DNA from: a virus
Taxonomy: Duplodnaviria > Heunggongvirae > Uroviricota > Caudoviricetes
Direction: 5' to 3' (one strand)
IMG/VR virus record: IMGVR_UViG_3300045988_014132
Location: 1 to 22,620 of that record
DNA: 22,620 nt
Each line of letters starts with the position of its first letter. Within the stretch, counting starts at the first letter, position 1. Below the pieces are notes generated by a model. It did no database searches and had not been told where the DNA came from. It saw nothing but the letters and a program-made list of their open reading frames with translations. Shown here one piece after another: positions 3,214-7,650 of the stretch. The translations under genes were made by a program, and so were the position numbers.

Positions 3214-3673
3214 TCAACGTAAGGCGTTCCTCGATATGCTGGCGTGGTCAGAGGGAACTGATAACGGACGACAGAAAACCAGAAATCATGGTTATGACGT
3301 CATTGTAGGCGGAGAGCTATTCACTGATTACTCCGATCACCCTCGCAAACTTGTCATGCTAAACCCCAAACTCAAATCAACAGCAGCCGGACGTTACCAG
3401 CTTCTTTCCCGTTGGTGGGATGCCTACCGTAAGCAGCTTGGCCTGAAAGATTTCTCTCCGAAAAGCCAGGACGCTGTGGCATTGCAGCAGATTAAAGAGC
3501 GTGGCGCTTTACCGATGATTGATCGCGGTGATATTCGTCAGGCAATCGACCGTTGCAGCAATATCTGGGCTTCACTGCCGGGCGCTGGTTATGGTCAGTT
3601 CGAGCATAAGGCTGACAACCTGATTGCAAAATTCAAAGAAGCTGGCGGAACGGTCAGAGAGATTGAGGTATGA
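3197..3673 (+). CDS. R: Endolysin R (lambda-type lytic transglycosylase)
   Basis: 158-aa [27 protein letters not shown]...; matches lambda R in length and sequence as recalled; start overlaps the 3' end of S. Confidence 0.95.
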
Positions 3674-4137
3674 GCAGAGTAACCGCGATTATCTCCGCTC
3701 TGGTTATCTGCATCATCGTCTGTCTGTCATGGGCTGTTAATCATTACCGTGATAACGCAATCGCCTACAAAGAGCAGCGTGATAAAAAAGTCAGTGAGCT
3801 GAAGCAGGCGACCGCCACCATTACTGACATGCAGCAACGCCAGCGTGCTGCTGATGCACTCGATGCTAAATACACGAAGGAGTTAGCTGATGCGAAAGCT
3901 GAAAATGATGCTCTTCGGCGCAAGCTTGATAATGGTGGCAGGGTGCTCGTCAAAGGAAAATGCCCTGTGCCATCCTCAGCCGAAACCTCCAGCGCCTCCG
4001 GCATGGGCAATGATGCCACCGTCGAACTCTCTCCAGTTGCTGGACGAAACGTTCTCGGTGTCCGGGACGGAATTATCCGCGACCAAACAGCACTGAGAAC
4101 GCTTCAGGAATACATCAGGACGCAATGCCTTCGATGA
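3670..4137 (+). CDS. Rz: Inner-membrane spanin subunit Rz (i-spanin)
   Basis: 155-aa ORF; N-terminus [31 protein letters not shown] is lambda Rz-like with one TM helix; C-terminal half differs from lambda Rz; ATGA overlap with R. Confidence 0.9.
3890..4096 (+). CDS. Rz1: Outer-membrane spanin subunit Rz1 (o-spanin lipoprotein), embedded in the +1 frame of Rz
   Basis: 68-aa ORF wholly inside Rz in another frame; signal peptide with lipobox VAGC ([21 protein letters not shown]) followed by proline-rich [11 protein letters not shown]; classic embedded spanin architecture. Confidence 0.8.
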
Positions 4138-4311
4138 TAGCGATAATTTTACTCATCATCCTTCACATCTGGCTCTGTAGACAGGGTGGTGATCACTTCT
4201 GGAGTGAATCCAGATTAAACATCTCATTGCTGATGCTTGAAGTTGAGCATCTGGCGCGCGGTAAGGGGCTGCGTTGAGATAAGAGCCAGTCATCACAAAC
4301 ACCAGGATTTA

Positions 4312-4337
4312 GCCTCGCATTCGCGGGGCTTTTTATT
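4312..4337 (+). terminator. Intrinsic terminator downstream of the lysis cassette
   Basis: 7-bp stem gcctcgc / gcggggc (one G-U pair) with loop attc, followed by TTTTTATT at 4330-4337. Confidence 0.55.
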
Positions 4338-4355
4338 GCAACAAAGGTAAAGACG

Positions 4356-4643
4356 ATGGATGAAGAATATCGTAAAGACCTGCAATTGTGGTTTGGCCTG
4401 ACGCATGCGTCGTTCTGCGTGATGCCGAGAGTATTCATGGAGGCTATGCCACAAGAATGGCAAGAGAAGATGGCGCAGTTGCTTTTTGAGTATGGCGACA
4501 CGATCAAAACGGATGTCTGCGGAGTTCACAGCTGTTTCGTTACTGCCAAAGACGGCAACAACCGCTTTATGAGGATGCCAGAAGATATTCTGAACTATCG
4601 TCATCCCCGGCGTGAGTTCATCGAATCATTTCTGAAGAAGTAG
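4356..4643 (+). CDS. Hypothetical protein (95 aa)
   Basis: ORF MDEEYRKDLQLWFGLTHASFCVMPRVF...; AGGT about 9 nt upstream of the ATG; protein-like composition, unlike the overlapping - strand ORFs; no family recognised. Confidence 0.5.
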   Translation: MDEEYRKDLQLWFGLTHASFCVMPRVFMEAMPQEWQEKMAQLLFEYGDTIKTDVCGVHSCFVTAKDGNNRFMRMPEDILNYRHPRREFIESFLKK

Positions 4644-4891
4644 CCATTACAAAGCCTATCTGCGGGTGGGCTTGATAATGAAACCGGAGCTTATTCTTGG
4701 CAACCAGTTATGGCAGTACCACGAAGCAACCCAAGCCAGAAAGTGGGGAAATAACACTGGCAGCCACTGAAAGATGAACCTCCTGCCTGATGGCAAAAAA
4801 AGATTCTTTGTGGTGGCGGACTGATGGAAAGACATCGGTTATTGCAGAGGCCATTCAATGAGTGGTCTCGACAATGGCTTATACCCTACAC

Positions 4892-4917
4892 GGGATAACT
4901 TAACTGATATCCCTTTT
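4892..4917 (+). terminator. Hairpin plus T-tract upstream of the small-ORF/terminase operon (weak terminator or regulatory hairpin)
   Basis: Perfect inverted repeat gggata (4892-4897) / tatccc (4908-4913) with 10-nt loop, followed by TTTT at 4914-4917. Confidence 0.3.
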
Positions 4918-4938
4918 AACGGATAAACGGAGCCAACA

Positions 4939-5181
4939 ATGGCAGAGATTATTCCCATGACTGAAGAACAGAAATTCCAGTTAGAGATTTACAAGCTGGT
5001 CATGAACCAGAACGCAGCCGCAGAAGAAGCATTTCAATTCATTGGCACTGACGAACTGAAGCTTGAGCTATTCAAAATTCACTTCCAGTCAGGCGGCGCT
5101 AATTCAGATATCACGACCCGCACTATCGAAGCGGTGCGTAAATCGAAGGAAGCGTTAGACCTGTTCACTACCGGAGTGTAA
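4939..5181 (+). CDS. Hypothetical protein (80 aa), predicted helical
   Basis: ORF MAEIIPMTEEQKFQLEIYKLVMNQ...; GGAG 7 nt upstream; first of three tightly packed small genes before the terminase genes; size and position resemble the small ORF carried by P22-like phages between lysis and gene 3. Confidence 0.6.
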   Translation: MAEIIPMTEEQKFQLEIYKLVMNQNAAAEEAFQFIGTDELKLELFKIHFQSGGANSDITTRTIEAVRKSKEALDLFTTGV

Positions 5182-5184
5182 GAG

Positions 5185-5472
5185 ATGACTGAACAAGAAA
5201 TGCCGAGATACCAGTGCCACAAAAAAGTTCGCGCCCTGAAGATTGGCTCTATAGAACATAAGCCAAACCCAGATCAGCCTGGTAAGTCTGGCTCTTCTAG
5301 TTATGGGGCAATTATTCATCCGGATGATAAGAAATACGCAGCATTTGATGTTAGCGCGGAATATATCTGTAAGCACCGACCAATGCCTGGAGGCTATTAC
5401 GTTGTCTATGAGGATGGATATGAATCATATTCTCCTGCTGAGGTATTTGAGTCTGGATATTCAAAATTATAG
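5185..5472 (+). CDS. Hypothetical protein (95 aa) with Cys/His dyads
   Basis: ORF MTEQEMPRYQCHKKVRALKIGS...YICKHRPMPGGYYVVYEDGYESY; starts 4 nt after the previous stop; QCHK and CKH dyads suggest possible metal binding. Confidence 0.6.
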   Translation: MTEQEMPRYQCHKKVRALKIGSIEHKPNPDQPGKSGSSSYGAIIHPDDKKYAAFDVSAEYICKHRPMPGGYYVVYEDGYESYSPAEVFESGYSKL

Positions 5473-5481
5473 GAATCCTCT

Positions 5482-5661
5482 ATGACAATCGTCGTTGATC
5501 TTGGTAAGGAGAAGAAATTCCCAATTACTCAAGAGCTATACGAGCGACTTGAAAGCGTCATCCATGATTACGATGGTGAAATCAGTTTATGCGAGGCGAT
5601 TGGCACACTCGAATTGCTGAAGCAGTCACTGATTGAAGGCGCGAAAGAGTCCTCAGCCTGA
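5482..5661 (+). CDS. Hypothetical small protein (59 aa)
   Basis: Not in the supplied ORF track (below its size cutoff); read directly: ATG 5482 ... TGA 5659-5661, MTIVVDLGKEKKFPITQELYERLESVIHDYDGEISLCEAIGTLELLKQSLIEGAKESSA; AGGAAT upstream; fills the gap between the 95-aa ORF and the terminase gene. Confidence 0.5.
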   Translation: MTIVVDLGKEKKFPITQELYERLESVIHDYDGEISLCEAIGTLELLKQSLIEGAKESSA

Positions 5662-5678
5662 AATAACAACTAAGTGAG

Positions 5679-6173
5679 ATGAATATGGCAGCACCAAAGG
5701 GCAACCGATTTTGGGAGGCCCGCAGTAGTCATGGGAGAAACCCTAAATTCGAATCGCCTGAGGCGCTGTGGGCTGCTTGTTGTGAATACTTCGAGTGGGC
5801 TGATGATAACCCGCTATGGGAGGGTAAGGTATTTTCATATCAGGGAGAAATAATTAAGGCCAATGTCCCTAAGATGCGAGCCATGACTATTTCAGGATTG
5901 TGTACCTTCCTTGATATCACCAGGCAAACATGGGGAACCTTCCGGTCAATGGAAGGTTTTTCTGACGTCACATCACGAGCGGAAGACATCATCTACGACC
6001 AGAAATTCTCTGGCGCAGCCGCTGACCTTCTCAACGCTAACATCATCGCCCGTGATTTGGGCCTCAAAGAGCAGTCGCAAGTTGAAGACGTGACACCTGA
6101 TAAGGGAGATCGCGATAAGCGACGCTCTCGTATCAAGGAGCTATTCAACCGTGGAACTGGACGCGATTCTTGA
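5679..6173 (+). CDS. 3: Terminase small subunit (P22 gp3-like)
   Basis: N-terminus (M)[33 protein letters not shown] matches P22 gp3 as recalled; the true start may be the second ATG at 5685, giving a 162-aa product. Confidence 0.85.
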
Positions 6174-7650
6174 TAACCTGAGCGACGAAGAGCAAATCGA
6201 ATTGCTCGAGCTACTAGAAGAAGAAGAGAACTACCGGAACACACACCTGCTATATGAATTTACGCCATACAGCAAACAGCGTGAGTTCATCGACGCTGGG
6301 CATGACTATCCAGAGCGCTGTTTTATGGCTGGTAACCAGCTTGGTAAGTCATTTACTGGTGCTGCTGAAGTCGCGTTTCACCTTACAGGGCGTTATCCGG
6401 GCACAAAAGGCTATCCTGCTGATGGTAAATATGGCGGTGAGTGGAAAGGTAAGCGTTTCTATGAGCCTGTTGTCTTCTGGATTGGCGGCGAGACAAACGA
6501 GACTGTAACCAAAACGACTCAACGCATCCTGTGCGGTCGTATCGAAGAGAATGATGAGCCTGGCTACGGTTCCATACCGAAAGAAGACATCATTAGCTGG
6601 AAGAAGTCTCCTTTCTTTCCGAACCTTGTTGATCATCTTCTGGTTAAGCATCACACGGCTGATGGCGTTGAAGATGGCATTTCAATCTGCTACTTCAAAC
6701 CATACTCGCAAGGCCGTGCTCGCTGGCAGGGTGACACAATCCACGGCGTGTGGTTTGACGAAGAACCACCATATAGCATTTATGGTGAAGGCCTTACCCG
6801 TACCAACAAATACGGGCAATTCTCAATTCTGACGTTTACCCCTCTGATGGGGATGTCTGACGTTGTTACCAAGTTCCTGAAGAATCCCAGCAAGTCGCAG
6901 AAAGTGGTCAACATGACCATCTATGACGCTGAGCACTATACCGACGAGCAGAAAGAGCAAATCATCGCATCCTATCCAGAGCATGAGAGAGAGGCTCGAG
7001 CTCGCGGTATTCCTACGATGGGTAGTGGTCGAATCTTCCAGATACCGGAAGAGACGATTAAGTGTCAGCCGTTCGAGTGTCCTGATCACTTCTACGTAAT
7101 TGGCGGTATGGATTTCGGATGGGATCACCCGCAGGCGCAGGTTCAGCTTTGGTGGGATAAGGACGCAGACATAATCTACCTTTCACGCGTTTGGAAGGCG
7201 AAAGAAAAGACAGCCGTTCAGGCGTGGGGAGCTGTTAAACCATGGGCGCATAAAGTGCCAACCGCATGGCCTCATGACGGAAACCAGCACGAGAAGGGCG
7301 GCGGTGAGCAGCTCAAAGGGCAGTATGCGGACGCTGGATTTATGATGTTGCAGGAGCATGCGACATGGCCTGATGGCGGTAACGCTGTTGAGCCTGGTAT
7401 CACTGAATTGCGAGACATGATGCTCGACGGTCGCTTCAAAGTATTCAACACCTGTGAGCCATTCTTTGAGGAGTTCCGCCTCTATCACCGTGATGAAAAC
7501 GGGAAGATCGTCAAGCTTAACGACGACGTGCTATCAGCCGTTCGCTATGCATACATGATGCGCCGCTTCGCCAAAATGATGCGCGACATCAAAAAACCAA
7601 AAGAGAAAAAGATACCAGCCCCAATCAGGCCCATCGCACGGAGAACTTAA
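6151..7650 (+). CDS. 2: Terminase large subunit (P22 gp2-like ATPase/nuclease)
   Basis: 499-aa ORF (same length as P22 gp2) with Walker A-like GNQLGKS; 23-nt overlap with the small terminase gene. Confidence 0.9.

Follow-up and report, generated by a model that had tools for sequence, protein, structure and literature searches.

Introduction

The genes between the lysis cassette and the terminase genes have been described in phage HK620, as hkbK to hkbN, and in phage Sf6, as genes 63–68, and the annotations of these phages assign no function to them. In lambdoid phages, extra genes inserted between conserved late genes are called morons. Here, we analysed the same junction, positions 4138–5678, in a stretch of 22,620 nucleotides (nt) of viral DNA (IMG/VR record IMGVR_UViG_3300045988_014132, Caudoviricetes), hereafter the window. 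Relative to HK620, the flanks are identical and the backbone has 96–98% DNA identity, open reading frame (ORF) 2 of the window being hkbM (DUF2560) and ORF4 being hkbN. The variable positions differ: HK620 has a KilA-N gene (hkbK) and hkbL at a site that we call slot A and nothing at our slot C, whereas the window has ORF1 and ORF3 instead.

The window corresponds to the late region of an Escherichia coli phage or prophage that is P22-like (Lederbergvirus). Its genes are arranged in the order Q, holin, endolysin, Rz/Rz1, junction, gp3-type small terminase, large terminase, portal, scaffold and coat protein, the latter being of P22 length with 431 amino acids (aa). Taken as a whole, the observations are best explained by a cassette junction with a counter-defence class of cargo, in which ORF3 is a candidate sponge-like protein; on balance we consider this explanation probable, if only by a little. 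We found no report in the literature of this junction as an anti-defence hotspot in P22-like phages, and a search of the literature on DUF2560 or an OB-fold sponge returned nothing relevant.

Backbone and cassette slots

The junction is very probably a mosaic, in which a conserved backbone is interrupted by three cassette slots. The module boundaries were determined by aligning the segment with HK620, HF4s, Huey and four E. coli prophages (n=7), and they agree within a few bases in all of them. According to these alignments, the backbone is composed of Rz/ORF0 up to an intrinsic terminator, a non-coding linker, DUF2560 (ORF2) and hkbN (ORF4). Homology to HK620, Huey and two of the prophages (L006 and L007) breaks off at 4334–4337; as aligned, the terminator is the point at which the Rz/ORF0 block exactly ends and slot A begins. 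The features of the junction and its flanks are as follows:

3670–4137, plus strand: Rz i-spanin, left conserved flank; variable sites 35/20/51 by codon position
3890–4096, plus strand: Rz1, embedded in Rz
4125–4277, plus strand: ORF0, 50 aa, phrog_11822 (E 9e-38), annotated by PGAP in prophages; left flank
4337–4636, plus strand: slot A, occupied here by ORF1 and in relatives by Rha, KilA-N with hkbL, a GIY-YIG nuclease or a 166-aa Tad2-like protein
4356–4643, plus strand: ORF1, 95 aa, cargo of slot A
4637–4938, plus strand: linker, conserved in relatives, including a 295-base-pair (bp) non-coding gap (4644–4938)
4836/4838: slot B, an insertion point in the linker, empty here; in relatives, 404–413 bp with a 'Gp49 family' (Acb4) gene
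4939–5181, plus strand: ORF2, 80 aa, DUF2560 (PF10834, E 1.1e-43), backbone, hkbM of HK620
5177–5502, plus strand: slot C, occupied here by ORF3; empty or occupied by dec in relatives
5185–5472, plus strand: ORF3, 95 aa, in slot C, starting 4 nt past the DUF2560 stop
5470–5481: ORF3–ORF4 spacer, TAG GAA TCC TCT, a shared reading frame of TAG plus three codons
5482–5661, plus strand: ORF4, 59 aa, acidic, hkbN of HK620, phrog_3546 (E 2e-41), semi-conserved backbone
5679–6173, plus strand: P22 gp3-type small terminase (PF16677, E 9e-31; phrog_606), right boundary of the junction

A preliminary description of this DNA had listed ORF1 to ORF4, all of which are present, but had overlooked ORF0, a fifth small ORF in the same span. 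It also took the four ORFs for one accessory segment. This is true of ORF1 and ORF3, which are swappable cassettes, but not of ORF2 and ORF4, which belong to the backbone.

We next considered a set of 87 loci, made up of 80 IMG/VR loci gathered with the DUF2560 protein as a query and the first seven loci. The occurrence of DUF2560 in 87/87 loci is a sampling artefact, since it was the query for 80 of them. The slots are filled combinatorially across this set, with Rha in 38 loci, ORF3 together with hkbN in 25, KilA-N in 12, Dec in 6 and ORF1 in 3, and the combinations occur with two unrelated types of small terminase. Slots A and C are empty or otherwise filled in relatives with identical flanks; thus, slot C is absent from HK620 and HF4s, where hkbN directly follows DUF2560. 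Slot B harbours Acb4/Gp49 inserts in Huey (L003), L005 and L006, among others. Further insert sizes at this point are 107, 242–245, 355–356, 382–389, 657 and 775 bp. In a census of 5426 complete E. coli genomes, 2632 contain some part of the segment, in the form of backbone parts, whereas 72 genomes have ORF1, 50 have ORF3 and 10 have the full combination. The junction is thus a presence/absence hotspot, as had been proposed in the preliminary description. With such sharp and shared slot boundaries, homologous recombination would swap cargo between phages.

The intrinsic terminator noted previously was confirmed at 4311–4338 on the plus strand. It has an 8-bp stem with six GC pairs, a 4-nt loop and a T-tract, with a folding energy of -15.2 kcal/mol (z -3.5), and a comparison with 200 shuffles showed that 1/200 folds equally well. 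The second hairpin with a T-tract, which had been placed at 4892–4917, is also present, but it is weak and was missed by the terminator scan: it consists of a 6-bp stem with a 10-nt loop (4892–4913) followed by UUUU (-8.3 kcal/mol, z -2.3).

The variability of each element was determined as the distribution of variable sites by codon position, indels and premature stops. The 295-bp gap was confirmed to be non-coding, with indels in 31/33 variants and no codon periodicity, and Rfam and tRNA searches of this gap gave no match. These results rule out a small-protein gene or an RNA gene in the spacer. An Acb4 pseudogene is also ruled out, as the Acb4 insert of relatives is a clean addition of 404–413 bp. 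On the minus strand, the linker has a terminator-like hairpin and a weak promoter-like site, at 4779–4800 and 4675–4703, respectively; both are within chance expectation, and no conserved minus-strand gene is found there.

Counter-defence families at the junction in relatives

Three Pfam families of sponges are relevant to this junction. The anti-CBASS sponges of the Acb4 family make up PF13876 (Chang et al., bioRxiv 10.1101/2024.12.30.630793), PF11195 is Tad2, and PF21825 'Sequestin' is a 3'cADPR sponge that was found through its fusion to Tad2 and Acb4 (Tal et al., bioRxiv 10.1101/2025.07.12.664507, for the latter two families).

The slot B gene of relatives belongs to PF13876 (E about 1e-35), and the slot A protein of Huey matches PF11195 'Tad2-like' (E 1.7e-24). 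These families, whose anti-defence activity has been validated by experiment, are alternative alleles in 26/87 (Acb4) and 4/87 (Tad2-like) loci. Because slots B and A harbour Acb4 and Tad2-like families, respectively, sister phages have a counter-defence hotspot at this junction, with family membership assigned by Pfam and function taken from the literature. The preliminary description had proposed host-interaction, defence or anti-defence cargo. This proposal is supported for the junction, ORF1 and ORF3, but not for DUF2560 and hkbN. PADLOC and NCBIfam searches of the junction proteins yielded nothing meaningful; the sole PADLOC match was JetB, with a non-significant E of 0.007 over 26 residues of ORF4.

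The ORF3 family and its kinship with Dec

Contrary to the initial impression that none of the ORFs carries a recognisable motif, ORF2 is a DUF2560 protein and ORF3 can be linked to Dec, the decoration protein of phage L. A search of 5.8 billion proteins gathered an ORF3 family of 449 clusters, typically of about 95 aa, with two strongly conserved motifs, MPxYQCHKKVWALKI and KHxPxxGGYYVVYxDGYxSYSPAxAFExGY. ORF3 has no match among Pfam, NCBIfam and PADLOC models. Its AlphaFold2 monomer model, built with 50 sequences (predicted local distance difference test score, pLDDT, of 80), shows a small beta-barrel and two short helices, and the best match among solved structures by two methods is Dec of phage L (Foldseek E 6.2e-4, template modelling score 0.64). 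Dec is also the top match in a sequence search of the PDB (E 0.19, with the motif KPEVGGY...AFE.NYT), and hhalign aligns ORF3 with residues 10–93 of Dec, i.e. its OB domain, with 88.6% probability.

The genomic positions match as well. In phages L and ST64T dec is directly upstream of gene 3, and the gene on its other side is DUF2560 or orf129. The IMG/VR loci show DUF2560 followed by Dec and then gp3, with the dec start 9 nt after DUF2560. Similarly, hkbN alone separates ORF3 from the gp3 small terminase, and this location in a P22-like late operon fits Dec. Since fold, sequence profiles and genome position agree, ORF3 is very likely homologous, by sequence as well as by position, to the OB domain of Dec. 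The homology is limited to the OB-fold domain at the N-terminus (Dec residues about 10–89), which is present in ORF3, and the C-terminal trimerising spike (residues about 99–134) is absent. The C-terminal residue of ORF3, residue 95, aligns with Dec residue about 93, so that ORF3 stops where the spike of Dec would start.

Among cultured phages, ORF3 homologs are found in CurroJimenez_Bas106 (96.8% identical), Dewey, LASTA and P1-like phages. Identities between the proteins of E. coli prophages and those of Ralstonia GP4-like and Pseudomonas phages are 45–54%, and the family extends to P1-like, LASTA-like and jumbo phages and to an HK97-type Morganella prophage, in which the homolog is again encoded between the lysis genes and the terminase. 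The homolog in GP4 is gp05. The 'cement protein' of that phage is not its ORF3 homolog, being gp1, a 157-aa immunoglobulin (Ig)-like protein. In GP4, a gene for a CsrA-like regulator (3803–4000 of the locus) adjoins that of the ORF3 homolog between the portal and the major head protein genes, within the head-gene cluster, and this looks like another accessory island inside a morphogenesis operon.

Fusions of the ORF3 domain and its proposed function

The ORF3 domain is found repeatedly in fusion with cytoplasmic modules directed at nucleotides. In P1-like phages it is fused to a Tad2-like domain (hhalign 99%; PF11195, E 1.6e-22), and in P0099 and in Klebsiella phage LASTA gp52 it is fused to Sequestin. 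A fusion of an ORF3-like domain with Sequestin is also present in a prophage protein of the homolog table of Tal et al. (bioRxiv 10.1101/2025.07.12.664507). In addition, the domain is fused to a putative MazG pyrophosphatase in a Vibrio phage and to an Acb4-like C-terminal helix pair in P0078, and the gene of one stand-alone homolog adjoins a PF24729 Acb2/Tad1-hairpin gene. ORF3 is thus a short phage protein whose domain occurs in fusions or clusters with known sponges, in agreement with the criterion that Tal et al. used for discovery. By this logic, which led to Sequestin, the ORF3 domain is a candidate binder of immune signals.

The residues C11, H12, K13, K19, H64, Y72, Y75, D77, Y79, S81 and S83 are invariant in the ORF3 family and absent from Dec. 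As they are polar or aromatic, this pattern of conservation suggests a conserved ligand site. ORF3 has a net charge near neutral and an isoelectric point of 6.4, which says nothing about pockets. We propose that ORF3 would act in the cytoplasm and bind either a conserved small ligand, likeliest an immune nucleotide, or a host factor that is conserved. It would then be a sponge-like counter-defence protein and not a capsid cement. From these sequence data, an assignment of ORF3 as a counter-defence or nucleotide-binding protein is our leading interpretation and a serious possibility, but a tentative one. The more specific idea that its family represents a new OB-fold counter-defence family that sequesters or processes immune nucleotides, with Dec as an exapted sibling, is rather unlikely. 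In that scenario, a cytoplasmic anti-immunity OB domain would have gained a trimerising spike at the same locus to become a capsid cement, or the reverse.

We observed a domain of about 75 aa in front of the Tad2-like domain of Huey (L003:1758–2255) and of Sequestin in an Acidovorax prophage protein listed by Tal et al. It has the pattern …PMTR..YN.(F/Y)RGW..P..EN..(E/G)GYLVEY.DGG…GY(V/I)SWSP..VFE..Y and no Pfam match. The N-terminal 76 residues of the Tad2-like protein in slot A of Huey contain a C-terminal motif, DGYVSWSPKEVFEKAY, as in ORF3 (hhalign 83.5% over 23 columns). Given their common C-terminal motif, this domain, ORF3 and Dec may represent a wider OB-like superfamily of sponge-associated domains.

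Other relationships of ORF3 were also considered. A distant kinship with Acb4/Gp49 was discarded, as hhalign gives 12.5%, E. coli Acb4 does not have the motif and the Acb4 fold differs. ORF3 is unlikely to correspond to the Lockin or Acb5 proteins described by Tal et al.: when their supplementary data were searched for the motif, only fusions of ORF3-like domains with Sequestin emerged, and Lockin is reported to be absent from INPHARED, where ORF3 homologs are present.

ORF1

ORF1 is cargo specific to the junction, and no Pfam family covers it. Its stand-alone homologs make up 45 clusters of proteins of about 95 aa, with identities down to 43% across genera of Enterobacterales (Escherichia, Salmonella, Enterobacter, Klebsiella, Yersinia and Erwinia). 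K7, D8, L9, W12, F13, P24, R25, M28, M31 and W35 are conserved, as is a C-terminal NYRHP motif. The PHROG coordinates (139–230 of 233) could indicate a truncated remnant, which is ruled out by the 45 conserved stand-alone clusters. In prophages of Yersinia, Erwinia and Enterobacter, the stand-alone homolog is always the first gene past the Rz-like spanin, and ORF1 homologs are found upstream of four different terminase and portal systems.

An exhaustive profile search revealed the ORF1 domain in 1428 representative clusters (E<=1e-3), usually as the C-terminal 90 residues or so of proteins of 100–490 aa. The N-terminal parts of these longer proteins have no Pfam match, except for one NlpC/P60. 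Of the ORF1-domain proteins P0166–P0314, some have Cys-rich, zinc-ribbon-like N-termini in front of the domain, and P0171 has two copies in tandem.

ORF0 and the backbone genes

ORF2 matches PF10834 with 147.7 bits (cut-off 25) over profile positions 1–72 of 72. It is under clear purifying selection, with variable sites distributed 21/8/47 over the codon positions and no stops or indels in 76 variants. The orf118 gene of phages L and ST64T, annotated as 'hypothetical protein', codes for a DUF2560 homolog with an N-terminal extension; hence, this backbone gene is also present in Dec-encoding Salmonella phages.

The family of ORF4/hkbN comprises 70 clusters from Enterobacteriaceae and Hafnia and is found in 41/87 loci. 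Its length of 55–64 aa is kept down to 62–68% identity between E. coli, Salmonella, Citrobacter and Hafnia. At the DNA level, the coding signal of ORF4 is equivocal (variable sites 11/4/8). Sequence searches of the PDB with ORF1, ORF2 and ORF4 gave nothing below E 0.1. We conclude that ORF1, DUF2560 and hkbN are real small proteins.

ORF0, present in 49/87 loci, overlaps the last 13 nt of Rz and has a hydrophobic N-terminus. Its coding signal is also equivocal, with variable sites 7/8/13 and a premature stop in 1/27 variants. It could be a small membrane protein tied to the lysis cassette. On the right side of the junction, the 3' end of the small terminase gene and the large terminase ORF, which starts with GTG at 6151, share 23 nt (6151–6173). 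This overlap is likewise annotated in related prophages and is ordinary for P22-like packaging genes.

Expression of the junction genes

A crude sigma-70 consensus scan of positions 3600–6200 found no promoter on the coding strand. Because of this result, and because the genes are located between the lysis and head genes, we propose that they would be transcribed late from the Q-antiterminated promoter, through the terminator at 4311–4338. The terminator would mainly mark a recombination boundary, insulating the cassette from non-antiterminated transcription.

The preliminary description regarded the segment as a likely site of morons. This is correct as regards insertion between conserved neighbours, since slots A and C are presence/absence insertions between genes that are adjacent in relatives. 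As for autonomy, the promoter scan gave no sign of it, and read-through from the late promoter is probable. The strong terminator is located upstream, not downstream, of ORF1, and only a weak hairpin follows slot B. The GC content falls mildly, from 0.47–0.55 in the flanks to 0.40–0.47 across 4800–5600, a stretch that includes backbone genes as well.

Alternative explanations

Several points weigh against the explanation as a whole. ORF3 belongs to no known sponge family by sequence or fold, Dec, its only characterised relative, has a structural role and is encoded at this very position, and the ORF3 gene is found among morphogenesis or late genes in GP4 and the P22-like phages. Evidence from fusions and gene neighbourhoods can mislead, and the OB domain could be a scaffold, an oligomerisation module or a passive partner. 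For ORF1, the AlphaFold2 model is poor (pLDDT 58), and late expression of the junction was deduced solely from a missing promoter match in a simple consensus scan.

Given its kinship with Dec, ORF3 might be a short capsid decoration (cement) protein, i.e. a Dec-type OB domain on the P22-type coat lattice, with ORF4/hkbN or capsid templating perhaps replacing the covalent spike of Dec. We consider this unlikely, even though Dec is the only characterised homolog of ORF3, is its top match by three methods and occupies the same slot just upstream of the terminase, the window encodes a coat protein of P22 length, and some annotators label distant ORF3 homologs 'capsid decoration protein'. The two genes appear as alternative occupants that never occur together in the 87 loci, but this is not significant, as about 1.7 cases of co-occurrence would be expected by chance from 25 and 6 loci. 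The best point for a Dec-like 'OB plus tail' assembly comes from the shared frame of ORF3 and ORF4. Five clusters (P0046–P0050) are 158-aa ORF3–ORF4 read-through proteins in which TAG is replaced with CAG (Gln), GAG (Glu) or TGG (Trp). As these are three different single-base changes, there were at least three independent stop losses, each generating an OB domain with a C-terminal tail like that of Dec. Such fusions are compatible with a joint function of both proteins; however, each of the fusion clusters is a singleton, and many phages have hkbN but not ORF3. Furthermore, the OB domain by itself (Dec1-98) folds without binding P22 virions (Woodbury et al., PMC11398494), and ORF3 ends where the Dec spike starts. 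A capsid-surface binder would be expected to co-vary with the coat protein, whereas the ORF3 family is highly conserved across unrelated heads, namely those of P1-like, HK97-like, jumbo and GP4-like phages. The GP4 capsid at 3.7 Å contains only the major capsid protein gp2 and the Ig-like cement protein gp1 (PMC9698820), and gp05 is not a protein of this map. Finally, fusions to cytoplasmic sponge and MazG domains would be senseless for an external capsid protein. The preliminary description had named assigned virion or packaging roles as evidence that would speak against it. None is assigned to any of its four proteins; the homology of ORF3 with Dec partly touches this point, but the evidence argues against a virion role for ORF3 despite that homology.

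DUF2560, hkbN and possibly ORF1 could instead be conserved late-operon helpers of lysis or DNA packaging, and not host-interaction cargo; they might, for example, modulate the small terminase, the recognition of pac or the function of spanins. The purifying selection on DUF2560 and its near invariance in the 87 loci are consistent with such roles, as are the invariable position of hkbN directly upstream of the small terminase, that of ORF1 homologs directly past the Rz-like spanin gene in several genera, and the common orientation of the three genes in a late operon in which the promoter scan found none. However, fewer than half of the loci have hkbN, which is found with small terminases of two unrelated types (the gp3 and HK620 types), and ORF1, present in just 3/87 loci and 72/5426 genomes, has homologs upstream of four or more different systems of terminase and portal, while the universal presence of DUF2560 follows from sampling with that protein as a query. 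With hkbN missing from so many loci and ORF1 being rare, these genes are not essential, and a helper function is quite unlikely. It is even less probable that the cassettes are prophage-expressed morons that mediate superinfection exclusion or defence to the benefit of the lysogen, rather than lytic counter-defence. The lysis–terminase junction is a classic location of morons in lambdoid phages, a terminator precedes ORF1, a hairpin with a T-tract follows slot B, and the mild GC dip would also be in line with this explanation. Nevertheless, the scan of the coding strand revealed no sigma-70-like promoter, there is no significant PADLOC match, the JetB match to ORF4 included, and those alternative alleles that have been characterised are anti-defence sponges rather than defence systems. 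Least probable, to the point of being hardly credible, is the idea that some of the small ORFs, in particular ORF0 and ORF4, are not genes but open frames kept solely because their DNA is a conserved recombination linker. Their weak codon-position bias would fit, as would the premature stops in a few variants. In contrast, the length of hkbN is maintained in several genera, Shine–Dalgarno-like GGAG or AGGA sequences are present 7–10 nt upstream of ORF2, ORF3 and ORF4, and ORF1 and ORF3 belong to deep protein families with conserved length and motifs.

Significance

This work maps three cassette slots with single-base precision in a junction that about half of complete E. coli genomes have, and it places sponge families with proven anti-CBASS and anti-Thoeris activity at this site in relatives. 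A hotspot at this place was expected for lambdoid phages, but the connection between Dec and sponges was not. With its homologs in cultured phages, ORF3 is the foremost counter-defence candidate. Through ORF3, Dec gains its first recognised relatives outside Salmonella P22-like phages, which raises the question of a common origin of a capsid cement and a putative immune-evasion protein. If the ORF3 proteins do form a new OB-fold counter-defence family, they would add a sponge family found in model systems, namely P22-like, P1-like and LASTA-like phages, and connect immune evasion with the decoration of virions by evolution; if ORF3 is a plain short decoration protein, the finding is ordinary. 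In addition, ORF1 reveals a large domain family, with more than 1400 representative clusters and no Pfam entry.

Comparison with known systems

Dec of phages L, ST64T and epsilon34 (PDB 6E3C) has 134 aa, compared with 95 for ORF3, and carries a C-terminal trimeric spike that is essential for capsid binding and that ORF3 does not have. In contrast with Dec, ORF3 has a family that extends to phages of unrelated types and includes fusions with cytoplasmic domains.

The sponges Tad2 (PF11195), Acb4 (PF13876), Sequestin (PF21825) and Acb2/Tad1 are, like ORF3, small phage proteins. Members of sponge families are encoded at this junction in sister phages, and Tad2-like and Sequestin domains are fused to the ORF3 domain. 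ORF3 differs from Tad2, Acb4, Sequestin and Acb2/Tad1 in that it has no sequence or fold similarity to them.

Lambdoid morons are discrete presence/absence cassettes, as are ORF1 and ORF3, whose cassette borders have terminator-like structures. In contrast to those morons, no cassette-specific promoter was detected here and the compositional contrast is mild. Moreover, the characterised alleles of the junction serve the phage, through counter-defence, rather than the lysogen.

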